35,519 nucleotides of DNA from Reclinomonas americana ATCC 50394 (lineage: Eukaryota). Under the pieces are notes generated by a model. The model did no database searches. It was not told the DNA's origin and worked only from the letters and a program-made list of their open reading frames with translations. The position numbers were made by a program, and so were the translations under genes. Location of the stretch: positions 80,073 to 115,591 of the forward strand of contig PS015286.1 in the NCBI GenBank assembly GCA_048213135.1. Reading direction: 5' to 3'. This document shows, piece after piece, positions 192 through 22,739 of this stretch. The first letter of the stretch is position 1, and each line of letters starts with the position of its first letter.

Positions 192-1405
192 TCACAAACG
201 GCAACTGCTGGACACGGGCTCGCCTCGCTCCGCTACTACCACCAGTTTGGTATCACCCTGGGCCTCCCGTGCACCTACATTTGCATGGGCCTGGCCCTGA
301 CACCTTCTATTACCAACGGGCTCATCCAAGCGGCTTTTGCCTTCTCGCTGGTGGTCTACATCTTTGGCATGTCGTCGCTGTGGCTATCGACAGCGGACAT
401 GGACCGACTCAGTTGCGCTTGTTTCTCATTTCCTCCACTGTGCTTCTCTCTCTAGCTCACCTCGCAGCAGACAACGAGAGTGAGCCTGTGCAGTCGCGTT
501 TGACGTTTCGTTTTGCCTTGTTTGTGGACTGCATTCCACTGTTTTGTGAGTCGCACCGTGTTCTCTCTGTGTTCGCACGCCTGCCCTCTGACTGGCGCAA
601 ACACCACAGTGTGCTGCGTCTTGCATTATGCGCTGGCCTCGATGGCCTACGGATTGGGCAGTTGCGTGTGAGAGTTGGCTTGCCTTAATGGTCCATCTGT
701 TGCTGATGATGTGTTCTATGCAGCCGCGTGGAGTTTTGGCGCTATTGAGGTGCGACCATATGTTCTCAATGGTTCGCCATTAATGCGCGTCACTCACTCT
801 CCTCCGCCGTGGCAGGCTGTGGCGTACGCCGTGGTGACAATCATTTTGCTCATGTTCGTTCGCTGTTGCGGTGGCGCGGCGGGACGCATGTCTTTTTGTG
901 ACTGGGTGGCGGTTGCCTCCATGCTCATTGGTCTGGCGTACATGGTGGCACTGACGGGCGCCTGCTTCACGTTGGTGGGAACCGTGTTTATGGTGCGTTG
1001 CTGTGCTTGAAAGAATATCGTTTGTCGTCCTTGGCTCGTGGATGTTCCTCCCTTACTTTGAAGTGCATCGTCTGTCACGTCATTTTGCTTATGGGTGTTT
1101 CTTGTGCGCTGCTGTTTCTCACTTACTTTGAAGTGTGTCATCTGTTCCTCCATCTTGCTTGGTTGTTTTGTCATGTGTTGTTGTTCTACTTTGAAGTGCA
1201 TCATCTGTCACTTCCTCTTGCTTGGTTGTTTTGTTTGCAGTGCGAAGGGTGTCTGTCAACAATCTCTTCATTTCTCTGGGGTGTGCCATACTCTGCTTGT
1301 GGGTGTTTGAGGGTATCATGTGCCACCCTATCTTGCTCTCCTCTGCTTTTCCAGAGCTCCCCTTTCTTGGGTCTCCGTGGCGCGTTGTTTCTATCTCTCT
1401 CTCTT

Positions 1406-1491
<86 letters not shown>

Positions 1492-2462
1492 NNNNNNNNN
1501 NNNNNNNNNNNNNNNNNNNNNNNNNNNNNNNNNNNNNNNNNNNNNNNNNNNNNNNNNNNNNNNNNNNNNNNNNNNNNNNNNNNNNNNNNNNNNNNNNNNN
1601 NNNNNNNNNNNNNNNNNNNNNNNNNNNNNNNNNNNNNNNNNNNNNNNNNNNNNNNNNNNNNNNNNNNNNNNNNNNNNNNNNNNNNNNNNNNNNNNNNNNN
1701 NNNNNNNNNNNNNNNNNNNNNNNNNNNNNNNNNNNNNNNNNNNNNNNNNNNNNNNNNNNNNNNNNNNNNNNNNNNNNNNNNNNNNNNNNNNNNNNNNNNN
1801 NNNNNNNNNNNNNNNNNNNNNNNNNNNNNNNNNNNNNNNNNNNNNNNNNNNNNNNNNNNNNNNNNNNNNNNNNNNNNNNNNNNNNNNNNNNNNNNNNNNN
1901 NNNNNNNNNNNNNNNNNNNNNNNNNNNNNNNNNNNNNNNNNNNNNNNNNNNNNNNNNNNNNNNNNNNNNNNNNNNNNNNNNNNNNNNNNNNNNNNNNNNN
2001 NNNNNNNNNNNNNNNNNNNNNNNNNNNNNNNNNNNNNNNNNNNNNNNNNNNNNNNNNNNNNNNNNNNNNNNNNNNNCCTGCCCGTGTCTATTTTCGCTTG
2101 AGTTTGTTCGTGGAGCCAGACATCATTCGCTTCTCCTTGTCCTTGTGCCTCATACTTCCCACCTTGCAGATGCGACTCTCCGCCATCACGCAGCGCGCAT
2201 CCGTTGCGGTGGGGGCAATCACCGGCGTGCTGATGGCGGGCTGGTGGGCCGTGATCTCTGTCATCAGCCTCACCACGCCAACTCTAGGCGTCATGCCCAA
2301 GACGGTGGCGATTGCGGTGCGCAGTCCTCGCATTTTGTCAATAGTGTCTCATCATCACCTCATTCTCGTGTCAAACAGGTCACTGCCGCGTGTTTTGCAC
2401 TGCTCCCCATCTCCTTCTTCCGCCTGATTCGGCATTTGCTGCGTTCTCAAGCCAACATGTGA
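192..2462 (+). CDS. 3' portion of an intron-containing multi-pass membrane protein gene (5' end outside the window; family not identified)
   Basis: Phase-consistent exons 192-411, about 467/470-545, 610-660, 724-749, 816-992, then (after gap 1492-2076) 2170-2316 and 2379-2462 (TGA). Spliced translation ...LRYYHQFGITLGLPCTYICMGLALTPSITNGLIQAAFAFSLVVYIFGMSSLWL...LFLCCVLHYALASMAYGLGTAWSFGAIEAVAYAVVTIILLMFV...WVAVASMLIGLAYMVALTGACFTLVGTVFM...VAVGAITGVLMAGWWAVISVISL...VTAACFALLPISFFRLIRHLLRSQANM* contains many consecutive hydrophobic helices. Confidence 0.75.
995..1345. repeat. Degenerate intronic tandem repeat, unit about 60-70 bp, 3 clear plus about 3 decayed copies
   Basis: Core tactttgaagtg(c/t)(a/g)tc(g/a)tctgt...ttgctt recurs at about 1054, 1124 and 1187. 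Confidence 0.75.
1395..1491. repeat. (TC)n microsatellite running into a gap
   Basis: Read directly from the sequence. Confidence 0.95.
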
Positions 2463-2512
2463 GCGCACGGGACACGCACGTTATCTCGGACAAGGTCGCG
2501 TTCACTGCGATA

Positions 2513-2518
2513 TTTATT
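2513..2518 (-). promoter_or_regulatory. Putative polyadenylation signal AATAAA of the HECT gene
   Basis: TTTATT on + (AATAAA on -) about 40 nt downstream of the inferred stop at 2557-2559. Confidence 0.45.
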
Positions 2519-2556
2519 GTCGAGATGCTGGCGGTACACAGCGGAGCTGGCCGCCC

Positions 2557-3709
2557 TCATTCCCATCTGCACACACACGCCAGAGTCAGTGGGTGCCGAG
2601 AACGCTGCTGATCTGAAATGAAAGGGAGCAGACGTAACTCGAATCGTTGCACGGCAAAGTCGCCTGCACACGGGAAGACACATGGTTAAGAGAGAAATCG
2701 CACATGCAAGTGCAGTGACGGGTTACTTACCATCAATGGTGACACAATTGGTGATGGCGTACTGCACAACACAAGCATTCAGGGGTCAGCACCCAGCACC
2801 ATCACGACAAACAGCAACGGCAGACTGACCAAAATGCGTTCCCGCATAATCTCAAACGTCGTATATCGCGGAAGCTCCATGGAGAAGAAACTAACACGCA
2901 AGGCGACACCGAGTGAGTGCTTCAAGCGTGGCTTACTAAAAGCAATAAGCGAGAGCTCACCAAGTATGCGAGATGGGGAGCCAGCGATCTGGGTCCGGCT
3001 TGGGCAGCAGAATGAGACGCATTTTCTCGGTCAGCACTGCCGTGTTGCTCGGCAAGCGAGAGCGGCCGTAGAGGAAGCGCAGGAATGCACTCCGTTCTGC
3101 AAGCATACAGTAAGCAACTGTCTCCTTTGCCTCTTCATCTTCTCCTACGCCAACTCACCCTCGGGAGAGAACGACTCGAGTGTGCGCCAGAACATGCGCA
3201 CCAAGTCGGAATCTTCATCAATGTTCTGGTACTGCGTGTTGCGCATGAGCACACCCACGTCAATGTCGGGCGCACCGACCACCAGCAGCTCCAACTCCTC
3301 CCACGTGAAGAGGCTCAGAAGGGCCAGAGGGCACACGGTGCCGAGGCCATCTCTGTGCACACACACAAAGTTAGTAGCAGAGAAAGATAATCTTCCTTGT
3401 CTTGATGTGACGCAACTGAATGGCCTTGACTTGCGCAGCCGACTCGCCCAGTCGTCTGGCCAGCGCGAGCTCCACATACTCGAGACGATTGGCGTACGTC
3501 ACCACGATGGAGTTGCCGCCATCTTTCAGCTCCACCACCTCGCCATTGCTGAGGGTGACGGTGAAGGTTTGCTCCACGGTGGACTGTTGAAAGGGGAAAG
3601 GGATGTGAGCTAAACTATCAATGAACAATGCTGCCACGCTCTCTGTTGGTCACAACGTGTTGGCGACAAGAAATCGACTTGTCCACCTCGCCTCACATCT
3701 CCCTCTCTC

Positions 3710-3794
<85 letters not shown>

Positions 3795-6700
3795 TTCTCA
3801 CACCCACTGTTTGACACCTCATCGTGTACGATTACGCGTAATGTGATTCAATTTTCGTATCTCCCTATGTGCGTGCGTGGGTGCGTGCCAGCTGCTATTC
3901 AACACTGATTGTGCACGGCACAGCGTTTCTCAGGCGTTCTCTTCCTTTCTACATCTCTCACACACTTCTGCTTTCTCTTCGTGTTGTGACAATCAGTGCT
4001 CTAAATAATTCTTTCCACCAGTCTCCTCTCTCTCTCCTCACAGCAAATACTCTTGTTCTGCTCGCTGGTAAGAAGTGCCAACAATGACAATTACGTGCCG
4101 GGCGAGGGACGAACACACACACAAACACACACACACACACACACGCACACATACACACACGCACACACACACATACAAAGAAACAAAAGAGGTACCGTAC
4201 GTGATAGAGCTGCAGAGCATAACGCGACGAACAACAACAGCCACCCTTTCCCTTTTTCCCCTCCCTTTCCCTCCATAGACTCACCGAGAACGCCTCGGGC
4301 GACACCGCATCTGGTCCCTCATTGCGCAGCATCTTCAAATATCGTGAGAAATTCGTGTCCACGGCCTCCACATCGCCCTGATCCACCGGCTGCTCCACCA
4401 GTGGCTTCCACACAAGCGACGGCAAGTCGAGGTTGAGGGTGTGGTTGCTGCGAATCGCCAGTCCCATGAGCATGCCGACCACGCGGTACATCTGTGGGCA
4501 GGCGTCAGTGACACGTAATATCGAAAAAGGAAGAGAGGACAAAAGCGCAACATCCAGGTGTCTGTGGAGGGCACAAGAAGCATCAGCATATGTTATTAAG
4601 GTGATACGCAACTCACACGAATTACGCACCGTTCACTCGAGCACGCCGGATTGATGATCCACTTGTCGCGGTTCACGCTGCCGTGCAGCGCATTGGGGCA
4701 CTGAATGAACAGCGGCACCGACGACGATTGCAGATCCTACACAGCGCAGGGTGAGTCACTCACTCGCAGTTATCAAGCGCTGTGGACTTCTTGCACGCAA
4801 CTGCACACATCTGGCTGATGCTCTCGCGATACAGGCCACCATAGTCGGAGCCACCTTCGCCCTCGAACTCGACGCTGCAGTCAATAAAAGCGATGAGCGA
4901 TAAAGCACATCCACTCACGCCTTGCCATTCACGAGCTCAACCCTTCGACAACAACACACCAACAAACGCACCCACACATGAAGTGCATCCATTGTTCACG
5001 AAGGATCACGCACACAGACATGCAAGCAACAACGCATAACAAAAGAATTCATAATGTATCGCGCACACGCGCGACGACAGTTACACGCATGCAGTTGCTT
5101 AGAGAAACAGAAGAAAGGCAGGCGAGCACAAGAGAGAGAGAGGAGTAAAGAAGAGACAGGGAGATAGTCGCGAGAGCGCGAGTGCAAGGTGAGCCAACAG
5201 CATCTCGGTCAGTTCTCCATCCGCTCACCAGCACCTTGCTTCACCTCAATTTCTCCTCCTCCCGTCCTCGCTCCCTTTCCCTTCCTCACTCTCCCTCCCT
5301 TCCCCCTTCCCCTCCCCTTCCCCCTTTCCCTCCCCCTTCCCCATATTCCCTCTTCCACCCACCGCCAAGCACGTCCAGTGGTATTCAGCGCAGCTGGGGG
5401 AATTGCGCGCAGCTGCGTGTACGCCTGACCAAAGATCGACATGAGGCCGTCGGGGTCTTGCTCCCGATCTGCAAAAAACCAAGTCACTAAACCACCAATC
5501 AACCGCTGCCCATCTGCAACACACGCGCGCACCATTCTTGTGCTTCAAGGCACGTGGTCTGTTGAGCTTCAAATGCACATGCCCCTCATCGCCACCCTCA
5601 CCACGACCCTCGTTGAGCAGGTGCATCTTGATCTCGCGGAAAATGAGACCGCGTAACCTCGAAACTGTCCGCACTTCGAGTCAGCACACGAGAATCACCA
5701 TCTACTCTGCACCCACAACACGCAACTCGTGTGCGACAACGATCCAGGAGGAGAACTGAGTTGCGGCCGCGCCGTACGAAGCAGCGGCATCATGCTCTCA
5801 TTGATGCGCTTCAGCAGCGCGAAATTGCGTTGCATGGTTGCCAGTGTGCACTGTGCATCGCGCCCCACTCACCATATGAGTCACACAGCTCCTTCCTCTC
5901 TCTCTCTCTCACACCAACACGAATGAACAAACCTCCTGCAGCGACGGGTACTTGGTATAATCGGAGCGCGGTACCGACAAGCTGACTGGCAACTGCGACA
6001 CGGTCAGCTCGACCGACTCGGCGAGACTGGCGTAGACGGCGTTGAGATCTTGCAGCGCGCGCACTGGCAGATTGCTGCCCTGACGGCACTCGGCGGTGCC
6101 GAAAACGCGCAGAGTCTCGTCGACAAAGTCGTCAGGGAAGCGGTCGTGGTCCACCAGCGAGAAGAGGACGTCGACCACTTGCAGCATCGGGCCGAGCCAG
6201 TTGGCGCCATCGGCCGACAGCGTCAGCACATGGTCGGCATTCGAGTGACGATCCAGACGCTTCGCTGCCAAGGCCAACTCCAGAAGCAGCGAGTAGCCGG
6301 GTGACGACAGAGCTCCCTCGTCCAGTCCCTCCACCGGCATCGACACGAATCCGTTGAAGAATGGGCGCAGGAGGGCCAGATTGATGGGCAGTGGTGTTCG
6401 CGAGGTCACTAGAGAGAGAGAGAGAGAGAGAGAGGAGGAGAGAGAGAGAGAGAAGAAGAGAGTANNNNNNNNNNNNNNNNNNNNNNNNNNNNNNNNNNNN
6501 NNNNNNNNNNNNNNNNNNNNNNNNNNNNNNNNNNNNNNNNNNNNNNNNNNNNNNNNNNNNNNNNNNNNNNNNNNNTCTCACATTCACCCATGCTCCTCGA
6601 CGGACCACACAGAAGCAAGGCCTTGCGTGTGCTCCTTCTCTCTTGCTCTCTCTCTTGCTCTCACACACACACGAACACGAACTATGCTCCTCGTTGGACC

Positions 6701-9700
6701 AACCAGTAGTGAAGTATATGCAAGCTCGTTCCTTTCTATCTCTCCACACTCTTCTTTCTCACCGTCTTACACACTCGTTGCTCTCTATCTCTCACTCACT
6801 CACTCACTCTTTCTCTCACTCACTCACTCACTCTTTCTCTCATTCACACACACACACACATAAACACACACGCGCTCTCTCTGTCTGTCTGTCTGCCTGT
6901 TGTCTCTTCCCGCACACGAATCACGCTCCTTGTCGGACTGCAGTGGCGAGACCTGATACACGTTCTCCTCTCTCTCTCTCTCTCTCTCTCTTTGTCTCTA
7001 TGCTTGTCTGCCTGTCTGTGTCTCTGCCTCACACAATGCTCTTCGTTGCTCAACGCAGTAGTAAGGCCTTACATGCCGCTCTTCTCCCCAGTTGCTCTCT
7101 CCCTCCCTCCCTCTCTCCTTTCCCTCCGCCTCTCTCTGTCCCTCTCCCTTCGCCCTCCCTCTCCCCCTCCCTCTCCCTCTCCCTCACTCCCCTATTTTCC
7201 CTTCCCGCACCATGCTCCTCATCAGACCACACAGTGGTGAGACCCTGCACCAACTGCAGCAGCATTCGCGTGGTCTCCATCAGGGCGAACCCGCGCGAGC
7301 GCTTGGCGGCCAGCACCAACGCCGCAAACAGGTCGCCGAGCGCGTCGGGGTCGTCGCTGGCCAGCACGCTGCGAACAATGTGCGGAGCTGGGAAGCTAAA
7401 CAGCGTTTCCACCGAGGCCAGCGCGAGGTCCACATCCGCCATTGTGAGCACCTGTGCCAACCACATGCGTTAGTATTGTGATAACCACAGAGGAGTGGAA
7501 CAGCATCATTACCAACCTCTGCATCCGACGCCGCCACCTTGCCAATCTCAAACACGGCAACTCGCAGAGTGGGAGGAGCATCCGCGGCTGCTGCCACCGC
7601 AGCACCTGCCGCACCCGCAGAGCCCTCAGCGTCAGATCCAGATCCCTCTGCGCTAACCTCGGCAGCCGGCGCTGGACTTGACTCGGCAGCCGCTGGGATC
7701 ACCGCACACCTGCAAATGCTTCGCATGAGGCACGGGTGTCAAACTGCCTCCAAATTCAATGAATGAAACGCAACGAGCACTTTTCACCCGGCACCGAAAA
7801 TGAAATCAGCGGATGCTTGGAGTCGAACTCGCGATACGGCCCTCCATCGACGCTCACAATCACTTTGACGTCCTTTGGCAACACATAATTGGCTGGCGTG
7901 TCAAACACAAGCAACAGCGCCACGGTCGCCTTGTCTGCCGACACCAACTCCACCACATGCGGCTCTTGCACCTGCGAGGATGAGAGAGCTGTCAGGTGAC
8001 ACACACACACACGCAGACTTTCTTTCCCCTAAAAAACACGCAACATGCAACGGCAGCACGCATGTTGTCAGCGCCGAAGGAGCGGACACTGGCGGCGCAA
8101 AGTACAACTGCAAATTGCTCGATGCCAGTCGCATCAACGACGACGCCGTGGCAGAGGCGGCCGGCGAGCCTCCCGGTGACGTTGCCAGCGACACTGAGGA
8201 GGAGGAGGAGGACACCGAGCTGCTCATGCGACCTGCGCGCAGTTCCGCATCCAGCTTCTTTCGCAGCTTGAGCAGCGCAAAGTCACGACACCGGAATTGT
8301 CTGCTCCATCGGGAAGAGTTAGGCTTGGCACCAATGCAAACGGTCTCGGCAATGACGCAACCCTGCTCCGCGGCTGATCTTTCTCGCATTCACAGTCAGT
8401 CGAGCCCACTTGCTCAAGTCGTCGAACGATCCGAAAAAGTCGTGCAACAGCTGATCGTGATCGCGCGGCCACGCCGACAGCAGCACGCCGATGAGTGCCC
8501 GACTTGCCAGCACCACTCCAGACGACGACAGCTCCGATGCTGGAGGAGGAAAAGTGAGCAGCGCGAAATGGAAGGAACGGGATGACTGACAAACGCACCG
8601 CGAGTGAGAGCGCGTCCGAGTGCCAGTCGCGAGGTCTTGGACACCACTGTGGTCCAGAGAGCCGCCGCACGACGCTGCAATCGCGCCCATATAAGAACAA
8701 GTCACATAACCAAAGGGAGCCTGCTCTCTCCACACAACTGCAGTTCCCACAATCGGCTGCCGCCTCTTGTTGTTGCCGGCATCGTAGCGCAGAACGCGCA
8801 TCGCCATTTGCTCCCATTCGAACGGCTCCGGATCCTCCACCGGGTCTTCTGCGGGTGCGGCACCTGCCCCTGCTTCCGCGCCATCGGCGTCACCCTCTCC
8901 GGAAGCTAACACGAGCTTGTCAGCAGCAGCAGCAGCAGCAGTAACGGGAATCATTCCACAGAACAAAACAAACCAGCTCGCTCAGCGTCCATCTGCCGCT
9001 GCACTTCCGGACCGTACTCCAGGATCCAGTTGACGGCCTCGTCCAGGTTGCGCGTCTGTTGGATGGCACGCTCCGACAACTCGGCCGAGTAGCCGAGCGA
9101 CATGAGCATCGCCAGACCGTGCTGTGATGGCACAGTGAGACGCAAGAAACAGGCAAGCGACCTGCACGAGACACACCTCTCGCTGCTCGTCTCGCACCGC
9201 CTCCTGTTGCTGCTGCGTGAACAGCCACTCCACAGCTGCCTCGGGACTGCCGCCAGAGCGCGCCAGTGCCTCAAGCACCCGCTGTCGCGAAAAGTCACCA
9301 AACGCCTGCAGTTGTGCCACGAGTGCCTCGCTGTGCGACACACAATGACAAGACATGAGAGAGGGAGCACTGCGACTGTGATCTCGCAACACGTCACGCA
9401 ACTCGACAGGTGGAGCAGGCCGTGCCTCTGGAGCGGGAACATTGCGACCCTACGTGGAGGCCAAAGTCAGAGATGCAAGGAGATGCAGAAACAGTCAACA
9501 CGACAACAAACCCCAGGAGCACCAGCCGCGCCAGCAGCCGCAGCCGCAGCAGCAGCAGCAGCACGGGCGTGCTCACGCTCATCACGCTGTCGCAGTGCAT
9601 CCGCATGAGTTGTCAACCACATGGCGGCGGCTTCGGAGTTTCCGCGCTCCTTCTTCAACGCCTGCGAAACTCACATTTAGTCTGCTGTCATGCAAAGGAG

Positions 9701-12700
9701 ATAATCATGCTTTCCCGAGATTACCTCGGAGCACCACTCGAACTTGAAGCCGAGGTGGACAAGCTCAGCCGCCTTTCTGTCTTCGGCCCTGGCTGACTCG
9801 ATATCACCAGACAGCTCCAGAAGAGTGCCCTGCATGCAAAGTTTAAGCAGGACAGGCATGATTCTGCCTCTCGCGAACAAGTAACTTACCAGCGTGTCTC
9901 GCGTCTCTGGCGTCACAAAGAGCACAGGGCACGTAAAGTCTGCAGAGCCCACATCACCACCTCGTGACCGCTCTGTAGGCATCTCCATGACGACGGCGGC
10001 AGCTCTGGGTATTAAACAAAATGAGTGACGCAGGTGCGACAACGAATCCTTTCTCTTCAAAACAACGCACCCCGAACTGACAGCGTACTGGATGCGATCG
10101 CGAAGTGCCGTTGCGTTGGAGAACGAGGCGTCAACGAGAACAATTTGCCCCGCGCAGTCGGCGGCGTTCGTCAGTGGCTGTCATTGAAGAGTGGGAATGA
10201 GTGAAACTGCCTCCATTGCAATGGAAGGATGTCGTGCAGTGCACCTTTTCGGCACATCGAGGTACGGCATGCACCAGATCCGCGGTAATCGCTGTCTTGA
10301 GTGGATGCAGTGCTGTGGCAGGCAACTCGAGTGGAGGCGAGTCGGCAAAGAGGTAGGACAGTTGCCCGTCTGCGTACAGCTAAATGAGTGCACAATTGCT
10401 TAACGTGTTGCAGACAAGCTGACGAACCAGGGTCGATGCGGAAGACAGAAGCCGCGCTAATGCCAGTCACCAGGTCACGCACGCGCTGCAGGGAACTGAT
10501 TCCACCAAAACAATGTGAGGACAAGGGTCTCTCGTGCACAGTCAACGACTAAGGAAAAAGGCGGCCGAACCAAACGCGCTCGAACTCGACATAGGTTGAT
10601 CCAGGAACGACTCCCACACCCCATGGTGGAGTCGAGCAGAGCGCCAGCTGCATGAGCTCACGACGGGGGACTGCGTAGTTGGGAAAAAGAGGAGTAAGGG
10701 GGAAGAAGGAGGGGAAGCAGGACAAGGGAAGCAGGAGGAGGGAAGGGCGGAGAGGGAAGAGGGGAAGGGGGGAAGGGAAAGAAGGGCGGAGAGGGAAGGG
10801 GAAGGCAGAGGGGGTTCTGTCGCTGGTCTGTCTCTCGCGCCTATCCCACTATCTTCGTCTTCATTTTCAGCGTTTCTTTGTACTGTCGTCATTGTTGTGT
10901 GCACAGTGTCTGCCACTCGCTCACTCTCTTCTTAACTGCTGACGAGAGAGGGGAAAGGGGGAATGAAGAAGGGGAAGCGAGGAAGACGGAAACGGGGAAG
11001 AGGGAAGGGAGAAGAGGAGAGATGGGGAGAAAAAGGAGGGAGAACGAGGGAAATACGGAAACATGAATATGGGAAGGGGAGAAGAATGAGGGTGGATCGT
11101 CGTTGGCTCTTCTGTCGCCCCTGCTCATTCTCTTTTTCTCTCTTCGTCTTCCTTCAGCGTCTCTTGTTTGTGTGTGCAGTGTCTGCCACTCACACACTCT
11201 CTTCCCACTTGCTGATGCGAGAAAGAAAGGACGGAAGGGGAAGATGGAAGGGGGGAGAGAAGGGGGAATGAAGAAAATGGAATTGTCGAAGAAGGAATGA
11301 GGAAGACGGACGGGGGAGGGGGAAGAATGAGGGTGGACTGTCGTTGGCCTCTCTTTCGCGCCTGTCTCTCTCTTCGTCTTCCTTTCAACGTCTCTTTGTA
11401 CTCCTGCTATTGTTTGTGTGCAATGCTCACTCTCTTCTCAACTGCTAGGAAGAGAAGGAGAGGTCGGAAGGTGGAAGAGAGGGTAGATCTATGTCTCTCT
11501 CCGTCTTCTTTCAGCGTCTCTTGTTTGTTTGTGCAATGTCTGCCACTCACACACTCTCTTCTCACATGCTGACGAGAGAGGGGAAAAGGACGGAAGGAGG
11601 AAGATGGACGGGGGAAGTGTCAAGCAAACCATTGGCAAACTTGGCATCGCCCTTGCAGTCGGCGTGGTTGATGACGGTCGCCGCCGCGGCGAGGAACAGG
11701 CGCTCCAGTTCAGAGAGCAACAGTTGAGTGCGCACTGCACCGAGAGAACCGTCAGATTAGCACTGTCGACAACAATTCTGCCAGTGAAGTCTCACCAGCA
11801 GGAGTCAGCGCTTCGACCACTTCAACGCTTGCCGCGTCGCTGGCCTGGCGATGACGCAAGACATTGGCAGCCACCGCCGGCACACTGTGCTCACACAGCA
11901 AGTGAGAAAATGGCACACCAGCACATTATGCGGAGCACACGCACCAGTCGAGAATGACATTGATAATCGGGCCGAGTGCACGAGAAACCTCCACCAGGCT
12001 CTGCAACCGCAGTGAGACAACGGGCAAGACAATAAAGATCACCAACACATGCGACCAACCAACTCGGCCACTTCGGCACCCTCGCACTTGACCGACTTCG
12101 TGGCCAGCTTGCCCTGCTTGTCGACACAGCGGAAGACACCACGGTTCCAGTCCACGTGCAACACGGTGCGTGCATCAGTGGAAAACACCGTGGCGCCGAC
12201 TCGCAGCACCTCAAACTCGCCACCCAGCACCAGCAGCAGGCCGGCCAGCACACAATAGTCCTCCAGCAGCGCATCCGTAGCCTCGACTGCCGGCGCGGCC
12301 ATCAGTCGCTCCTGCAGTGTCGGCACGCCACCGACGAGCGAGGCCATCATCGAGGCCAGACGGGCACCCTTTTTGCAGCAATGTGAGATGATGAGCTGGC
12401 TAGGGAAATGATGGGGAGGGACAAACCGACGACGTCAGGAGCATGGCGCGGACGACTGGCGCCACCATGCGTGACACGGTGCCGAGAGTGTTGGCGTCGA
12501 TTGCTCCGTCGGCATCTGCAAAGATAAAGTGAGAATCCGGAGACTTACGCACTCTAATCTTGTGCAAAAGCGCACCCTTCCTGCGCTGTTCACGGAGGAG
12601 GTGGGGATCGGCGAGCGGCGCAATGCCGAGTCCACACAGGCGAAGGAGGGTGCGCAGATCACGCTCTCCGTCCGACATTGTTTGTGCTTGCGTGGCGAAG

Positions 12701-15700
12701 CGAGCCATCAGGCCGGCGGCGAGGGCCGGGATGCGGGGGTTCTTCCACCACTGGGAAAGAGGGGAAGGGTGAGGACAAGGGGAAGGGAGAGGGAGAGGGA
12801 AAGGGAGAGGACAAGGAGAAGGGAGAGGGAGAGGGAAAGGGAGAGGGAAAGGGAGAGGGAGAAGAGAGGGAGAAGAGAGTGGGAGAAGAGAGTGGGAGAA
12901 GAGTGGCAGAAGAGATGAGGGGATGGAGAGAGGGGAAGAGGGGAAGAGGGCAGAGGGAAAGAGGGGGAAAGAGGGGGAAAAAGCGGAGAAGTTCATAGGA
13001 AGTGGAAGAGCGACCATAACCGGGAGAGAAATCAAGGAAAAGCGAATGAGAGAAGAGAGGAACCGGATACAAGAGAACACAGATGGAGAGGGGGAGGCAC
13101 GGGCGAAAACAAGAAGGAGGGTGACAGAGACAAAATAAAAAGAGGATGACAATAATCGAGAAGAGTGCCCAAGGAATACCACAAGGAAAGACGTGCGGTA
13201 TCCACAGGAGGTAAGATGTGCTCATTCACTCTTCTGCTGAGGAAGTGGGCTTGACGGATCGAGGGAGGAGGAAATGTGCGAGATGAATGAACGCAGAGAG
13301 AGGACGGACGAGCGTAAAACAGAGAATGAACGAACACACAGTAAGTCGACGAAGATGTTGTCGTGTCTCCCTTTGTCCCACACACTCACCTCCGCTCGCT
13401 GCAGAATCTGCTGGCACGCGGCACGCAGAATGCTGTTGACAGTGTGCTGCTCCGAGAACGCACTCCAGTGCTCCGCAAACTCAGCGAGCAGAGTAAGGGA
13501 GCGCAAAACGCAGTTCTCGTCTGCATGTTGGCAAGAAGGCTTAGTCTATCAGGCCTCCAATTACAAGTGCGCCACAGTCATCCACTCACCAGTCGCCGCC
13601 ACGGGACCGGTCTTGGCGATGACAGCATCGTTCACCCACAACACTAGTGTCTCGAACAGCACCGAACACGACTCGAGCTCTGCGCCACATTGTCAGAGAC
13701 AATGACAAGACTCTCGCTTCCCATCGTCGTTCACACTCAACGTTTGCTCACTGAATTGGCCTTGGCGGACAGGCACCAGCCAATCACCGTGTGGCCAATG
13801 TACTCGACCGTGTCCAACAGCGCCTCGCGCAACACGGCGAGCACCTCGGCCGCCGCGTTCTCCGTGGTCTTGTGTTGGCTGTGGAGAATTATTGAGTGCA
13901 AGGCACGAAAGCGACAAAGAGCATGACAACTGCGCAACATGGCGGCGACCGTATCCCTGACCAACGCAAACTCATCGGCAATGGTTCGCACCAGTCCGCC
14001 CGACGACAGCAACGCATCGTCAATGTCGGCGTAGTGCATGCAGAAGCAGCCGAGGACGTACAGGGCGCGCAAGGTGTCGGACAGCGGCGCGTCTGCGGGA
14101 ATGCAAAAATGAGAAAAACATTCGCATGCCTATTTTGCTTTCCCGGCACGCGCACCAACGAGCAGACGTCCGTTGATGTGCGACGGCAAGAGCGCGGTCA
14201 TTTCGCGGAAGAGCGACTGGAAGGCGAACTGGGCGCGCAGACGTCGCATGTTCTCGCACCCACGAATCCAGTCGAGGTAGTGTNNNNNNNNNNNNNNNNN
14301 NNNNNNNNNNNNNNNNNNNNNNNNNNNNNNNNNNNNNNNNNNNNNNNNNNNNNNNNNNNNNNNNNNNNNNNNNNNNNNNNNNNNNNNNNNNNNNNNNNNN
14401 NNNNNNNNNNNNNNNNNNNNNNNNNNNNNNNNNNNNNNNNNNNNNNNNNNNNNNNNNNNNNNNNNNNNNNNNNNNNNNNNNNNNNNNNNNNNNNNNNNNN
14501 NNNNNNNNNNNNNNNNNNNNNNNNNNNNNNNNNNNNNNNNNNNNNNNNNNNNNNNNNNNNNNNNNNNNNNNNNNNNNNNNNNNNNNNNNNNNNNNNNNNN
14601 NNNNNNNNNNNNNNNNNNNNNNNNNNNNNNNNNNNNNNNNNNNNNNNNNNNNNNNNNNNNNNNNNNNNNNNNNNNNNNNNNNNNNNNNNNNNNNNNNNNN
14701 NNNNNNNNNNNNNNNNNNNNNNNNNNNNNNNNNNNNNNNNNNNNNNNNNNNNNNNNNNNNNNNNNNNNNNNNNNNNNNNNNNNNGGGAGGAACAGGGGGA
14801 GGGAACAGGGGGAGGGAACAGGGGGAAGGAACAGGGAGAAGGAATGGGGAAAGGAAAAAGGAAATGAAATGGGAGATGGGAGAAGGTGAAAAGATAGAAG
14901 AAAGGAAGAATCAGCAGGAAAGGAAGTGGAGATCGGAGAGAGAACATGAAACAAGAGTGGTGAAAGAGGAAGGAAAAGAGAGAAGTGGAGATGGGTTGGA
15001 AGGGAGACGAGCAAGGAGAAGAAAAGTCAGAAGAAGGATGACGTAGGGCGAGACAAGTGAAAGAATGAAGATTGATCCCATCAATCTGACACGTCGACGA
15101 TATAAAGAAAAGCATTGATCACTGCAACGCGAGCTGATAGTCAATCGGAGTTGAGACATAGAGTCGAAAGGAAACGCATGGCAGGGCAAAGCGAGTGCTG
15201 CAGCATTCGAGATAAAAGACATGAAGAAGATCACTGACTGGGAATCCTCACCTGTTTGGCAATCTCCTCGCACAGGGCGAGAGGGTCTTGGTTGCCCATG
15301 CCGCCGAAGAAGGAACCAGGCATTGGCGATGCGCTCCCTGCAGGAGAGTGAGTGAGTGAGGAAGAGGGGATAATGGAGACGGACATAGAAACAAACCTGG
15401 TGTCATCGCTTCGCTCTTCACCGCTGTGAGGCTTTCGCGCCACTCTTGCAGCTGTTTGGAAGACACAATGAGCACGCGGGCACATGCAGCCAGGCAGCAA
15501 TCTTGCATACCTCCTCACTCTCCTGCTGCTCCACGACTTCCGGCAGGTCGTTGACGGAGAAGCCGCTCGAATGCACGGCACTGTTGAGGTGCAACAAAAA
15601 GTACAATCGCTCTTGCATGCTTTCAGCGATCGATTGCACCGACAGGCTGTGTGGGGGAGAGAATGAGGCACAGGAGAGAGGGAAAGGACATCAAAGATGG

Positions 15701-18700
15701 GAGAGGGGGCGTTCATGGTAGAGTCGATGCGAGACGGGAACGTCCAACAAGAACTGAGACTAGAGGAAGAATGCAAGTGCTGTTGCGTGAAAATGATTTG
15801 AGAGAATGCCAGAGAACGTCGAAAAATGCAAGGAAAGCAGAGGATGGAAGTGAAGATTGAGAACGACCGTGAACGTCGAGAATGGAAGAGTGAACATATG
15901 AGGGAACTGAGTGTGCGCTGCTGCGAAGAACAAAACTGACTCCGTCTCCATGGCCCGAGAGAAAGGAAGCCATCAAGCGATGCAATGCGCAAGTGCTGGT
16001 AATCAAGTTGAATGAATAGACACTCGCGAAAGTGAATGCTAGCTATGGAACACGGGAAGGACGAAGAAGGCGAGAAACACACTGCTGCAAGAGAAGACTG
16101 GTGGTCACAACAGGCAAGTTACGCACTGCGATGACTCGTCGCCATCGCTGACACCAATGGCCTTGCCGAGGAGCTCCTGTCGACATTGCTGCACGATGCG
16201 CACCAACTGCACACCAACAGCAAGTGTGAGTGAAAACAACGCGACCTGCAGCGAAGCAACAATGTGACCTTGCTGGCCGATGTCCAGGCACGAGTCAAAA
16301 TAGCAGGAATTGCCTTGGCATCCACGTGGGCGCTGAACTTGCGCGCAACCTCCACCTTGTTCCAGTGATACAGCAGAACCGCGGCACAAGTGTGCACGAG
16401 ACGACGCACTGACGAAAGGGATATGAGAAGAGGAGACAATCACGCCGTCTCACACAATGAGGACGCACATGCTGGAGTTTTTGGCAGTCGGTGCTTGGTG
16501 TCCAGTGTCTCTGTCAGCGCCGCAGCCTCTTCACGCCCTTCCATCTGCGATTTCCCACCAGGGTGAGCACCATGGACAATCACCTGCTGTCTTCCTAGTA
16601 TCAACGAACCAAGTTCAACAAGAATGCGTCCTCACGCTCAGCTCCCGGTGCGTCGTCGGCATCCGAGGTCGTCAGCGTCAGCGCCGTCAGATCCGTCACA
16701 TTGTCCGGTGTGATGACCGAGGAGCCGTCGGCTTGCACCTGACAGAACTCTCAATCAGCTTCCACTCTGACTACCACTATCGCAATGTCACAAAGACCTG
16801 TCGCCGCAGTCCACCGGTAAACAAGTCACTCGACAGAAGGCCGCCGAGTTCGCCATCAATGATCGGCCCCGATGTCGCATCGTCCATGAACGACCGGGCA
16901 ATCTACAATCACCCTTTAGCATACCGCGCGTGTGTAACACGCTGTATCGACAAGAGAAACGCAACATCACCGCATCGCTGACACACGTGCGCAATGACAC
17001 CACGGAGGCCGAGCTGTGTGGCCTCATCCAGCGACTGGCCACTGGCTCGCAGCTTCTCGGCGGCGACCAGCAGCGGATAGAGTGCGTTGAAGCAGGCGAA
17101 ACGACCACGCAGGGCAATCACCTTGCGCACTTGCGTCACCGCAATGTGCAACAGGGCGAGGAGCACGCTGTGACCGCTGCGGGGATCATCCTGCAGACTG
17201 CACGCGGTCGGCGAGCCCTCTTGCGCGAGCAACATTTGCTGGCACACGCGCTCCACGAGTCGGTTGAGGATGGCAAAGGCTGCCGACCTCTCGAATGCCT
17301 GATCGTCGACGGCCGAGAACCGTGCGCGCTCAAATGCCCAGACCACGCATCGTGAAGTCACCGCGTGTGCCAGTTGTGAAAGGGCGCGATCTGAAGTGCA
17401 GCAAAGTGTGAGGGAAGGGGGAAGGGGAAAGGGGGAAGAGAAGGGGGAAGAGCAAAGGGGGAAGAACAAAGGGGGAAGAGCAAAGGGGGAAGAGGAGGGG
17501 GAGAGAGAGGGGAGAGCAAGGGAGAGCGAGGGAGAGCAAGGGAGAGAGAGGAGAGCGAGGGAGAGCGAAGGGACGAGACGAAGGGGAAGAGGACGAAAGG
17601 GAGANNNNNNNNNNNNNNNNNNNNNNNNNNNNNNNNNNNNNNNNNNNNNNNNNNNNNNNNNNNNNNNNNNNNNNNNNNNNNNNNNNNNNNNNNNNNNNNN
17701 NNNNNNNNNNNNNNNNNNNNNNNNNNNNNNNNNNNNNNNNNNNNNNNNNNNNNNNNNNNNNNNNNNNNNNNNNNNNNNNNNNNNNNNNNNNNNNNNNNNN
17801 NNNNNNNNNNNNNNNNNNNNNNNNNNNNNNNNNNNNNNNNNNNNNNNNNNNNNNNNNNNNNNNNNNNNNNNNNNNNNNNNNNNNNNNNNNNNNNNNNNNN
17901 NNNNNNNNNNNNNNNNNNNNNNNNNNNNNNNNNNNNNNNNNNNNNNNNNNNNNNNNNNNNNNNNNNNNNNNNNNNNNNNNNNNNNNNNNNNNNNNNNNNN
18001 NNNNNNNNNNNNNNNNNNNNNNNNNNNNNNNNNNNNNNNNNNNNNNNNNNNNNNNNNNNNNNNNNNNNNNNNNNNNNNNNNNNNNNNNNNNNNNNNNNNN
18101 NNNNNNNNNNNNNNNNNNNNNNNNNNNNNNNNNNNNNNNNNNNNNNNNNNNNNNNNNNNNNNNNNNNNNNNNNNNNNNNNNNNNNNNNNNNNNNNNNNNN
18201 NNNNNNNNNNNNNNNNNNNNNNNNNNNNNNGAACAAAGGGGGAAGAGCAAAGGGGGAAGAGGAGGGGGGAGAGAGAAGGGGGAAGAGCAAAGGGGGAAGA
18301 GCGAAGGGGGAAGAGCAAAGGGGGAAGAGCAACGGGGAAAGAGCGAAGGGGGAAGAGCAAAGGGGGACGAGCAAAGGGGAAGAGCAAAGGGGGAAGAGCG
18401 AATGGGGAAGAGCAAAGGGGGAGAACAAGGGGGAAGAGCATGGGGGCAGGGTAAAGAGGACGAGCATGGGGGCAGGGTAAAGAGGACGAGCATGGGGGAA
18501 GAGCATGGGGAAAGAGGGAAGGAGGAAGAGCGAAGAGCAAAGAGCGACGGGGGGAGAGTGAAGAGGAACACGAAGAGGGAATATTGAAGGGGGAGAGAAA
18601 GGGGAAAAGCGAAGGGGGACGACGAACAGGAGGAGGGAAGAGGAACAGGAAGAGGGAACAGCGAAGGGCGGAGATTGAAGAGGAAAGGGCAAGAAAATGA

Positions 18701-21700
18701 AGGAAGGAAAAGAAAGAGGAAAAGGAGACAGATACAAAGAACTTAAAGAGTTGGAGAAAGAGACAGTGGAAAAGAGATATGCGATAGGCAGTGACACAGA
18801 GCGCACAGCAACTGCAGAGACAGGAAAGACATCGGGATCGATTTGCACTCAACTCAGTTCAGCTCGCGAGCTAGACGACTTGGGGACGGCAGTCGCGCCG
18901 GTCGGCAGCGGAGCGAGTGTGTGAATCAAGTCAAAGAGTTGCATCAGTATTGGACCCAGCGAGTTCGGTTCGACGCCTATCACGCATGGAGAGGCAGGCT
19001 GTCAGAGTAAAATCCTCAAAACAGGTCACGAAACCACATCAGTGACGCACCAAATGCGACATCCGCCAGCCGTGTTTCCGCAGTGACACTCAAGTAGACG
19101 ACGGTGAGGAACAACTCGGTGTCGTCGGCAGAGCCCGATGCAATGCGCTCCAACAGGTATTGCATGCGGTCTGTGAAGAGGGATTGAGACTCTTCTCGCG
19201 GAAGCAATGCTCTCTCCGTTCAAAACTCACCAAGCAGAATCAACGGGTCGCCGCCCACTTGCGACACAATGACCTTCCACAGACGCTGCGTTTCACGACA
19301 CAGGGCCACTGGTGCGTCACCGATGGAGCAGAGTGCCGTGTGCAAGTCCCACACGCGTGTGATGTAGGCTGCAGGGCAGGGGAAGACAAGGGAGAAGGGG
19401 GGAGAAGAGGTCAACAGAGGGAAGAAGAGGACAAGAGGGGAAGTAGGAACAGAGAGGAGAAAGGCAAGAATAGATAGTGATAACAAATAGAACGTGTGGG
19501 AGTACAGAGTGTGCACCAGGTGCGCTGAAGGGAGTGAGAAGACGAAAACACAACGAGACAGAGGAGGAGTTGAGCAATATGGAGTGAGAAGAGGACAAGA
19601 CAGCAGCGGATGCGAAGAGTGGAATAAGGGGACGAGGAGAACGAGGGGAGAGCGCAGCGTAGAAACGCGAAGTGAACAAACAAGAGAGGAGAGAAATGAG
19701 GACAAGAAGACTGCAGATACAGAGCGAGGATGGGAGAGGGATGCTCTCTTGCAGCAACTCACCAACGTCATCTGGCGCACTCCAATCAACACTCGTCGCA
19801 GCTCGCTTCGTCATCAACTGTGCAGTCGCCGGCACCAACAGCGACAACCAGTACGTGAAGGTCTCCAGGCGGCGCTGGTTCACGGGAGCCGACTCCTCCG
19901 GCATGGGTGTGCACCAGTGGCACAGGCGCAACACGAGCGCGCGGAATACTGCCAGGTCGGCATCGGCGGTGGCGGTGCCGAGATGGCTGCGCGTCCAGTC
20001 GGCCAGCGGTGCGAGGAGGTCGCCGAGGAGCGGGCGGATGATGAAGGGGCGCGATTGGGCGGTGACCACGCTGCGTGCGAAAGGGAAGGGGAAAAGAGAG
20101 GGGAAGTGAGAGGAAAGAGAGCATTAAGTGGGGGAGAGAGGAGAGAAGAGGCAGGATGCATTCAAGATATGGAAAGCATGGATAGGATGGGAAAGAACTG
20201 ACTGCGAGACAAAGAGGGGAAGAGAACGAGAGAGAGAGAGAAAGAGAGATGGAAAAAGAAAGCATGAGCGAGAAAAGGGAGAGAATGAGGCAGGGAGTAA
20301 CGAATGAGAAGGGCAAGGAGACGTGGGCAACAAGAATGAGAGGGAGAGAGGCAGAGAGAGAACGGGTGAGCGAGAAGTGGGCGACGGAATGAGGGCTGTG
20401 AGGAAAAAAAGGAACAACCAACGAGAAGGGCAAGGAGACGCGGGCAACAGGAATGAGAGAGGGAGAGAGGTAAAGAGAGAACGTGTGAGCGGGAAGGGGA
20501 GACGAAAAAAGGGTCGCGAACAAGAACGGGACAACGAGCATGAAGTGAGGCGAAGAGAAGTGAGCAACAAAAGGACTGAGATAGAAAAACAAGAAAGCGA
20601 ACGAGAAATACAAAGAGACGCAAGCAAATGTTCCCTTTCCTACTGCACCGGTCATTCATGGACGCAACTCATTCTCGCACTCGCCAACCATCTTCTCCAC
20701 CAATTGCGCCATCTCCTTGAACGAGTCCGGCGATTGAATGGCATTGCGGAAGACCACAAGCGTGCGATGCACCACTGAGAGACACACGACGGTGTTTTGT
20801 CGGGGATTGTAGGTGCAGGTGATATATGGCCGGCGAGGGCTCACTACGCACGACGAGGGGAAGAGTGAGAGCGGGAAAGGGAAAGCAGGGGGAAATCAAA
20901 AATACCCACCAAACATGTCCATGTGAACCGTCTCGGCAGCCACCGCCTCGCCACCCTGCTGCGCAGCATCGTCGGAGAGCAAGAACGAGTCCAGCGTGGC
21001 GACGGGCGGCGGCACCATGTCGTCGTCGTCTTTGCGACTCATGTCGCTCTCCAGGAGGATACGCGTCAACACATCGCCGTTGGTGAAGAACGACATGCGC
21101 GTCTTGCCGGCGGTGACGTGAGCCGAGTCTGAAAGGAGAAAGGGAGAAAGGATGGCGAAGGATGGGTGAAGTGAGAAGGGACGGGTAAGGGTGGGTGGAG
21201 TGAGAAGGGGCGGGCAAGGATGTGGAGAAAGGAAGGATGGCGGAGCGGATGTGGAGAAAGCGAAGATGGCGGGGCGGGAGTGGGGAAAGGCAGCGACAAA
21301 GAGGTATACCTCGATAAACCAGCGTTCGCACCACCTCCTGCGTGAGCGGCTTGACCACGGTGACGTGCAAATGTGCGTGTCCACCTGTCGCAGAGAGTCA
21401 GAGGGAGATAAGCCTCGTTGACTGAGGATTTCGTCACGCACCGCTCTCGTCCTCCACACGCGAAATAAAATAGAGAAGGCGACCGTCGGTGATCATGCTG
21501 CGGAAATTCTGCGGCGAGTGCACACGCGGAAGGTGCGCCACCTCCAGCACATTTTGATCCTGCGCGCAAGCGTAAGCTCCCAGCAGTAGAACATGAACCA
21601 CAATGTCCGCGACATGCCTCTCCCGTTTGCGGGTCGGATTGCACCATCGTGGCGACATTGTTCTCCATCACTTGCCACAAAACACCGCCCGCAAATGCCA

Positions 21701-22739
21701 CGTGCACGCGTGCTTCTTGGCGGGGTCTACGAAGGAGAAGTGAGACTCTCTTTTCAACACGCAACAGAGAGACGACATCACGCACGACTGAATGCGACGG
21801 ATTGTCGGCTTGTCCGGATTTGAAATGTCCACCGTCCACAGACCTCCTGAAGGAGTGTACAGAATCACCACGTTGTTGTCCGTCACCGTGCAGCTCATGT
21901 TCTCGTCGAGCTTGATGGACGGGTATTGCGGGAGTTGAATGCCTGCACAGAAGTGAGCGAGTGCGCGGGAGCAACAGGTCGCCAGTGCGCGATTACAACT
22001 CAACGACGATGCTCGCTGAGAGCAAAGAAGCGCGGCGGTGGTGGGTCCTTGCACAACGACAGGGCGTGAATCTCGGGCGGCGTAATCACCGCTGAGTCCA
22101 AGGTGGCGCGCACGACGTGCGCCATGGTCAGCGGGTCGCGCATCAACCAGGCGAGGCGGGCGAGTGCGTCCAGCACGATGCCACTTGGCAGATCGCTGCG
22201 ATGGTGTGAGCGACACGGAAGGGGGGAGAGAAGGAGACGCTGTCTGACGACTGACCAATTATTCACTTGCGCCAGCAGCTGCTCGCGCGTCTTCTCGACT
22301 AGGGCGTGCACGTCGGCTCTGTGTACCACCAGGAAGGAGCGTTGTGCACTCACGGCGCGCAGGCCGGCGACGAGGTCTGCTTATTGCGTGAGAGGGCCGC
22401 GAATTAAATAAAGAAAGCTTGCTGGTGTCTCACCAGCGTGATCGCCCGAGGCAGAGAACTTGTTGAGGCACTCCACCAACATGGCGATCAGCTCGTCGGG
22501 TGACTCGCGTGCTCCGGATGATGAGGCAGGTGATGATGATGATGATGATGCTTCGCTGGCAGCGGTCTGCGGGGGAAGGTAAGAGGCACAGAGAGGAGGA
22601 AAGGGAGAGTGCGAGGGAGGGAGAGACAGGCAGGCAGAGAGAGAGAGAGGGAGACAGGCAAAGAGAGAGAGAGAGAGGAGGGCAGACATAGAAAGTGAGA
22701 GAGTGAGACACAGCGTGTGTGCGCGAGTGTGTGCGTGCA

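Follow-up and report, generated by a model that had tools for sequence, protein, structure and literature searches.

We analyzed a 35,519-nt stretch of the Reclinomonas americana ATCC 50394 genome (contig PS015286.1; this whole stretch is referred to as the window), with attention to a class of 5′ splice sites, or donors, in which the intron starts GTTGCGT, GTTGAGT or a near variant. The DNA is eukaryotic and intron-rich and contains 7 runs of N. One very large gene occupies the minus strand from ~22500 to 2560; two of its exons match the Pfam HECT family (PF00632) at 39.7 and 53.0 bits (curated cut-off 23.9) and its exon 9329-9177 matches the UBA family (PF00627) at 37.2 bits (curated cut-off 22.4). 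With both cut-offs exceeded, the gene is a HECT-domain ubiquitin ligase with a UBA domain. On the plus strand, positions 190-2320 carry a membrane-protein-like gene, and on the minus strand a coiled-coil gene spans 33000-25300. A preliminary description of the window had listed 18 introns of the class, with a last exon base other than G in 17 of them. A direct check of the sequence found all 18 heptamers at their coordinates and on their strands, and the base before the cut is A in 10, T in 4, C in 3 and G only at 8361.

The sites were scored with an exon-chaining model that combines self-trained codon log-odds, an acceptor matrix and a fixed intron penalty, and in which donors are scored as GT alone (the motif-free parse). 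The score difference for a site is the best parse forced to use the given GT minus the best parse forbidden it, with acceptance above −1. Two further parses used one self-trained donor matrix (single-matrix parse) or an unsupervised three-component donor mixture (mixture parse). The sites, named in the text by their first intron base, are listed below together with one micro-exon; the slash marks the cut, and a GC cut is one moved 3 nt downstream to the GC, with its cost given in units of alignment score against homologues.

412-418, plus strand: A/GTTGCGC in the membrane-protein gene; difference +2.0; present in the motif-free best parse and the mixture parse.
661-667, plus strand: A/GTTGCGT in the plus-strand membrane-protein gene; difference −0.66; present in the mixture parse only, with ab initio support.
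2632-2638, minus strand: A/GTTACGT, opening the final HECT intron (72 nt, ending at 2567); difference −0.23; homology-anchored.
3410-3416, minus strand: A/GTTGCGT at KAIQ/DGLG; difference +5.1; gap-free in 6 homologues.
4545-4551, minus strand: T/GTTGCGC at RHLD/MYRV, following the micro-exon; difference −2.6; a GC cut costs 9-11 units.
4552-4561, minus strand: 10-nt micro-exon encoding R-H-L-D with the flanking split codon; required by the gap-free homologue alignment.
4795-4801, minus strand: A/GTTGCGT at QMCA/DLQS; difference +4.1; a GC cut costs 11 units in 7/7 homologues; retention meets a stop.
5720-5726, minus strand: A/GTTGCGT at SHT/I-SRLRG; difference −4.8; a GC cut costs 5-15 units.
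7768-7774, minus strand: C/GTTGCGT, an ambiguous candidate; 65-nt intron to acceptor CATTTGCAG, frame-compatible; difference −2.2.
8038-8044, minus strand: T/GTTGCGT; 73-nt intron; difference −0.2; present in the single-matrix and mixture parses.
8355-8361, minus strand: G/GTTGCGT, the sole −1 G of the 18; 61-nt intron; difference +1.7; present in all three parses.
8732-8738, minus strand: A/GTTGTGT; 207-nt intron; difference −0.56; present in the mixture parse.
9396-9402, minus strand: A/GTTGCGT, a candidate read by eye; 72-nt in-frame intron before the UBA exon; difference −10.5.
13735-13741, minus strand: C/GTTGAGT; 62-nt intron; difference +2.8; present in all three parses.
13932-13938, minus strand: T/GTTGCGC; 60-nt intron; difference +3.0; present in all three parses.
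16959-16965, minus strand: T/GTTGCGT, an ambiguous candidate; 63-nt intron to acceptor GATTGTAG, in frame; difference −0.61.
18847-18853, minus strand: A/GTTGAGT; difference −0.67; present in the single-matrix and mixture parses; its acceptor is not visible because the intron enters the N gap 17605-18230.
20662-20668, minus strand: A/GTTGCGT; predicted 598-nt intron; difference +0.84; present in the motif-free and mixture parses, with the single-matrix parse favouring A/GTGCGA at 20680.
21998-22004, minus strand: C/GTTGAGT; 62-nt intron; difference −0.27; present in the single-matrix and mixture parses.

The motif-free test accepted 12 of the 16 minus-strand sites and both plus-strand sites, compared with 10 of 170 (5.9%) randomly drawn coding-strand GTs (Fisher p = 3.8e-10 vs the class) and 7 of 14 canonical GGTGMGT sites. 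The minus-strand sites that failed were 4551 (−2.6), 5726 (−4.8), 7774 (−2.2) and 9402 (−10.5), the first two of which were rescued by homology. As for the parses themselves, 6 of the sites were picked by the motif-free parse, 8 of the 16 minus-strand sites by the single-matrix parse and 13 of the 18 by the mixture parse, whose components were A/GTTGCGT (0.20), G/GTGAGT (0.43) and G/GTGCGT (0.36). We conclude that most of the 18 sites behave as real donors. In a separate observation on the gene model, a run of short stop-free introns at 10070-9331 on the minus strand has lengths that are multiples of three (66, 60 and 72 nt); their retention preserves the frame, and the penalised model passes over them.

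Homologous proteins allowed some cuts to be placed to the residue. In the HECT region (6408-2560) 14 exons were assembled, with 7 to 8 tblastn blocks from the homologues P0010, P0151 and P0005, and five of six homologues align to the assembled translation across about 450-475 residues, the sixth across ~300. The preliminary description had held that conserved HECT sequence fixes several junctions, including KAIQ/DGLG, QMCA/DLQS and RHLD/MYRV, and the gap-free alignment to homologues confirmed it: at junctions 4801, 4551 and 3416 no gap falls within 5 residues in 6/6 homologues, and the same holds at 5726 in 5/6. The consecutive P0010 residues 1918/1919 straddle junction 4801. At 3416 the residue count between the flanking blocks is exact with respect to P0010 (two residues), and it is likewise exact for the 10-nt micro-exon ending at 4551 (5 residues between flanking blocks in P0010, or 6 in P0151), which lies between a 68-nt G/GTGCGT intron and the 60-nt GTTGCGC intron. 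The Ile that P0151 and P0005 have at 5726 is reproduced by the split codon A+TT. Intron retention meets a stop at three of these four tested sites. Splicing at 2638 yields the C-terminus ...DFAVQRFEWE followed by a stop, in which W-E matches the conserved ...NWEED ends of P0013, P0151, P0119 and P0071; reading through yields 28 unrelated residues. Judged by these alignments of predicted protein, 5 of the 18 sites (5726, 4801, 4551, 3416 and 2638) are anchored to the residue at the GT. Elsewhere in the same HECT-region model, the ordinary G/GTGCGC junction 5532 (residue 243) has a 2-residue gap exactly there in 4/6 homologues, and the donor or acceptor picked at 5532 may be off by 6 nt.

GC-AG introns occur in most eukaryotes, and one explanation for the class is that the cut falls three bases downstream (GTT/GCGT), which always keeps the frame and adds one residue. 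GC donors usually need a strong consensus, and TT before the cut with GCGTNN after it is unlike that. When the cut was moved to the GC at 5726, 4801, 4551 and 3416, the extra residue lowered the alignment score by 5-15 units at 4/4 sites and with 7/7 homologues (by 8-11 units at 3416, where retention also meets a stop), whereas the residue counts are exact for the GT cut. Given the loss of score at every tested site, we rejected the GC-AG reading of the class, which is very improbable.

The window contains 20 copies of GTTGMGT, whereas 100 dinucleotide-preserving shuffles of it gave 8.72 ± 2.66 and never reached 20 (largest 17). Between 2500 and 22400 the ratio of copies on the coding strand to those on the other strand was 11:2 for GTTGCGT and 3:1 for GTTGAGT; canonical GGTGCGT, at 7:4 in the HECT region, is the less common word. 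This bias depends on the leading G, because TTGCGT with another base in front (A, C or T) is split 5:5 over the same interval. The coding strand also carries 7 GTCGMGT and 3 GTGGMGT copies (GT-N-GMGT with N not T), none was picked as a donor by any parse, and those checked (e.g. 4873 and 13808) sit within predicted exons. A U12-type donor (/RTATCCTY) was considered and rejected; the window has one match (21055-21062), which is at chance level (shuffle mean 1.08) and coincides with none of the 18 sites.

We then assembled a table of 78 donors from the mixture parse, 13 homology-curated HECT-domain donors (replacing the corresponding parse rows) and 3 donors read by eye (10200-8700). The table omits 2638, 7774 and 16965, and for the last two the rival donors were entered. 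Three classes can be distinguished in it. Fifty-three donors start with GT followed by A, C or G, and 46 of these have G at −1. Seventeen start GTTG, comprising 15 of the sites above and two GTTGGT donors, with G at −1 in 2 and A in 10. The remaining 8 start GTT without a following G, and G at −1 is found in 8/8; this third class, overlooked in the preliminary description, includes the following donors.

15396, 12426, 11629, 9511, 8973 and 5932 (first intron bases), minus strand: G/GTTTGT (one GTTTGC), always with −1 G.

G at −1 is thus found in 2/17 GTTG donors vs 54/61 others (Fisher p = 4e-9), and in the homology-anchored donors alone in 0/4 vs 9/9 (p = 0.0014). Because the G/GTTTGT donors all carry −1 G, a T at +3 is not by itself tied to a non-G −1 base. 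The dependence within the intron is equally marked: G at +4 follows a +3 T in 17 of 25 donors and other +3 bases in 2 of 53, so that 17 GTTG donors are observed where independence of positions predicts 6.1 (78 donors), and the G+6 T+7 pair occurs in 12/17 GTTG donors vs 0/61 others. These counts also agree with two estimates in the preliminary description, namely that the class makes up about a quarter of the HECT-gene introns (15/58 HECT donors start GTTG) and that roughly 9 in 10 ordinary donors are G/GT (54/61).

A uniform 5′ heptamer shared by many members of uniform length (~60-73 nt) could also be the mark of a recently inserted mobile, introner-like intron family that brought its own GTTGCGT start. 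The lengths, however, follow the same distribution as those of ordinary introns (median 64.5 vs 67 nt, Mann-Whitney p = 0.71; the class is mostly 60-73 nt), and the sequences diverge beyond the seventh base; an all-vs-all blastn-short comparison of 72 introns returned 1 cross match, outside the GTTG class. Because the lengths match those of ordinary introns and no sequence is shared, the class is not a mobile-intron family, and we consider that origin extremely improbable. The 3′ ends are of the ordinary kind too, with CAG in 14/16 GTTG-class introns. A YTRAY word whose A sits 14-21 nt before the 3′ end was found in 10/16 GTTG-class vs 15/48 ordinary introns (p = 0.04; last 45 nt), and this branch-like excess could be a compensation for a weak 5′ end.

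To compare the two registers, positions −3 to −1 and +3 to +8 of each donor were scored with a matrix built from the 53 ordinary donors. For the GTTG donors the mean score was −14.4 bits in register 0 and +4.5 bits when slid one base, and 17/17 scored higher slid, compared with 0/8 GTTTGT-type donors and, in a leave-one-out test, 4/53 ordinary donors. The proposal of the preliminary description that both donor classes are one motif with the cut 1 nt apart is supported by this result. Pairing to U1 small nuclear RNA (snRNA) was counted against the usual U1 5′ end (from a table in PMC4856993), which may not be this organism's U1. For the GTTG class the possible pairs averaged 7.06 in the shifted vs 4.76 in the canonical register, and 13/17 donors had more when shifted; ordinary donors had 7.3 canonical vs 5.2 shifted pairs.

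We therefore favour, as probable though by no means certain, the explanation that one recognition motif is used in two registers, with U1 shifted or with a bulged U, a usage common here and rare in mammals. The GTTG donors would be the ordinary signal G-G-T-G-(A/C)-G-T with its second G changed to T, which leaves the sole GT one base further 5′ and would place the cut one base upstream relative to the signal. U1, displaced by one base, would pair with the leading G and the GMGT core, and the U5 and U6 steps would then cut at the sole available GU. The first intron G would take over the place of the exonic −1 G in the pairing with U1, which would explain why this class alone can do without that −1 G.

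Equivalently, one of the two U's would be bulged. Shifted registers and registers with a bulge at +2/+3 are both established for human 5′ splice sites (PMC4856993), and under the bulge described by Roca et al. 2012 (cited in PMC4856993) GUU plus the consensus can be drawn with one bulged U and an equal pair count. The bulge register gains from pairing of the −1 G with U1 C9 (PMC4856993), whereas 15/17 donors here lack that G; because it is present in only 2/17, the −1 pair is mostly missing from the bulge picture, and all its other pairs are shared with the shifted picture. From the sequence alone the two pictures are inseparable.

A few dozen human sites are reportedly of the shifted-register type described by Roca and Krainer in 2009. 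The likeness is close: both those sites (via PMC4856993) and the ones here start with GU, after which the remainder of the consensus follows with a one-base delay, both dispense with the −1 G and gain U1 pairs when shifted, and in the human case cleavage stays at the GU (PMC4856993). They differ in that the core is GCGU/GAGU here and AAGU in the human sites, and in that the human sites are an atypical minority (PMC4856993) while here they are 17/78 donors in one window. The tandem donors of STAT3 exon 21 (PMC11162779) raise the same question of which snRNA register fixes the cut when motif and GU are offset; there, two GUs 3 nt apart compete in a human gene, whereas each site here has a single GU.

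Two groups of observations weigh against the shifted or bulged reading, the first of which concerns pairing. Minimum-energy duplexes of the GTTG donors with the assumed standard U1 are weak (mean −2.9 vs −6.6 kcal/mol for ordinary donors), the free-energy duplex puts U1 C4 on +6, as the shifted register requires, in 6/17, and C prevails at +5, the base facing U1 psi-5, in 11/17. The exon sides do not match either: the class has A at −1 in 10/17, and the ordinary donors have T at −2 in 23/53 and A in 13/53. In an alternative reading GTTGCGT would form a second, independent consensus, recognized in the normal register by a U1 paralogue, an altered U6 or a protein factor; in its favour, the duplexes of GTTGCGT with standard U1 are weak in every register and C predominates at +5. 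Changed donors with co-evolved U1 do occur, according to bioRxiv 10.1101/2022.06.08.495308, in Entamoeba (donors GUUUGU, U1 AACAAAC) and in Mastigamoeba balamuthi (donors GUGCGC, U1 ACGUAC, with G at the psi-5 position), which shows that in protists a change of donor signal can be accompanied by one in U1; Thecamonas and Mamiellales have +4 C donors with standard U1 (same source). The ordinary donors here likewise favour +4 C (GTGCGT/GTGCGC), and the G/GTTTGT class resembles the Entamoeba-type GUUUGU donor (bioRxiv 10.1101/2022.06.08.495308), but each of those four cases, as described there, has one consensus in the normal register, whereas two registers stand side by side here. With a hypothetical U1 carrying G at position 5, shifted minimum-energy duplexes rose from 6 to 11 of 17 and their mean from −2.9 to −5.6 kcal/mol; such a U1 would, however, aid both classes and leave the shift still needed. 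The class is moreover the ordinary motif displaced by one base in 17/17 donors, for which the shifted register needs no new component, and no Rfam family was matched in the window at gathering thresholds, which leaves it with no U1, U5 or U6 gene and hence no support there for a paralogue. For the same reason, the variant snRNA or dedicated factor suggested in the preliminary description is pure conjecture. A second recognition component is, in our judgment, unlikely.

The second group concerns the donor calls. The cut positions at 13/18 sites rest on the ab initio model. Site 7774 has a frame-compatible rival pair (donor 7787 G/GTGAAA with acceptor 7692), and 16965 has a same-frame rival donor, 16986 C/GTGTGT, 21 nt upstream. 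The acceptor proposed for 9402, TGTGTCGCACAG, has a pyrimidine-rich tract and CAG, and the exon that follows it encodes the UBA domain; the 72-nt stretch from 9402 is open in frame, however, and therefore the frame does not demand splicing. Two coding-strand GTTGCGT copies (4606-4612 and 21759-21765) lie inside introns, 17-20 nt past ordinary GTGCGT donors, and at 21765 the reading frames agree with the ordinary donor; these copies may serve as reserve donors or as places for U1 to land, or may have arisen by chance. The donor model behind the 78-donor table was trained on the same sequence, and the counts taken from it are therefore partly circular, the independent supports being the motif-free test and the homology-anchored subset. 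Finally, the coiled-coil gene has 0/15 GTTG donors compared with 15/58 in the HECT gene (p = 0.03).

Could the class then be an artefact of the gene models, the true donors being other nearby GT or GC dinucleotides and GTTGCGT a word of coding or intronic sequence found close to exon ends by chance? The legal alternatives at 7774, 16965 and 9402 and the intronic copies at 4612 and 21765 speak for it, as does the lack of a homologue to anchor most of the HECT gene. On the other hand, homology fixes five sites, 12/16 pass a test blind to the motif that 5.9% of random GTs pass, the strand bias requires the leading G, and the unsupervised mixture recovered the motif. An artefact is thus quite unlikely as an account of the class, and we conclude that most sites are genuine GT-AG donors of ordinary short introns in the HECT/UBA gene and its neighbour. 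Beyond the five anchored junctions the cut positions are inferred, as are U1's part in recognition and the frequency across the genome. Routine use of the register in the lineage, as the preliminary description proposed, would be an extrapolation from three genes in one window, of which one has no such donor.

It is conceivable, though somewhat doubtful, that about one-fifth of all introns in the lineage are defined with U1 one base off, that this U1 may carry G at position 5, and that the GU and U5/U6 set the cut. The mechanism is already known; the frequency seen here would be new. Literature word searches found no report of an abundant shifted-register donor class in a protist, which is not proof of absence, and searches for GUUGCGU, GTTGCGT, GUUGAGU and GTTGAGT as whole words returned nothing relevant. 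Shifted and bulged registers have been worked out on a small human minority of sites and matter for predicting splicing mutations. If the usage holds at a large scale, register would be an ordinary, evolvable part of splice-site recognition, and the lineage would offer a natural, genome-scale uncoupling of 5′ splice-site recognition from cleavage-site choice, and its introns would provide natural tests, in the hundreds, of how the cleavage point is settled once U1 has left. Because the class would use a second register, standard gene finders with one donor matrix would mis-annotate a fifth of introns. If genome-wide counts fail to bear the class out, it would be a local curiosity of one large gene.

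Named homologues of the HECT gene are spread over eukaryotes (Reticulomyxa, Amorphochlora, Pharyngomonas and Echinamoeba), and in a representative protein search the best match of a 69-residue HECT exon was to a 153-aa fragment at 62% identity. The protein of the host gene itself, or a near relative, was not found in the protein libraries, nor was a relative in a metagenome scan (493 pattern matches). Exon 6406-5933 had no match among longer proteins (≤2000 aa), exon 32646-32101 had none in a protein search, and tblastn with the N-terminal portions of the long homologues matched nothing at E < 1 outside the HECT region.

Two further observations concern the rest of the window. A direct repeat of 300 nt or longer (32074-32373 and 34589-34888; 95% identity, 2515 nt apart) doubles two exons of the coiled-coil gene (32821-32101 and 35336-34616), with an N gap between the copies, and could reflect a real tandem duplication or an assembly artefact. 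At the opposite end, positions 1-60 of the plus strand resemble TTAGGG-type repeats in degenerate form (GTTAGG, TAGGGTT, GTTAGGTTT) and give way to low-complexity, CT-rich DNA; the window may thus begin at a subtelomeric position.

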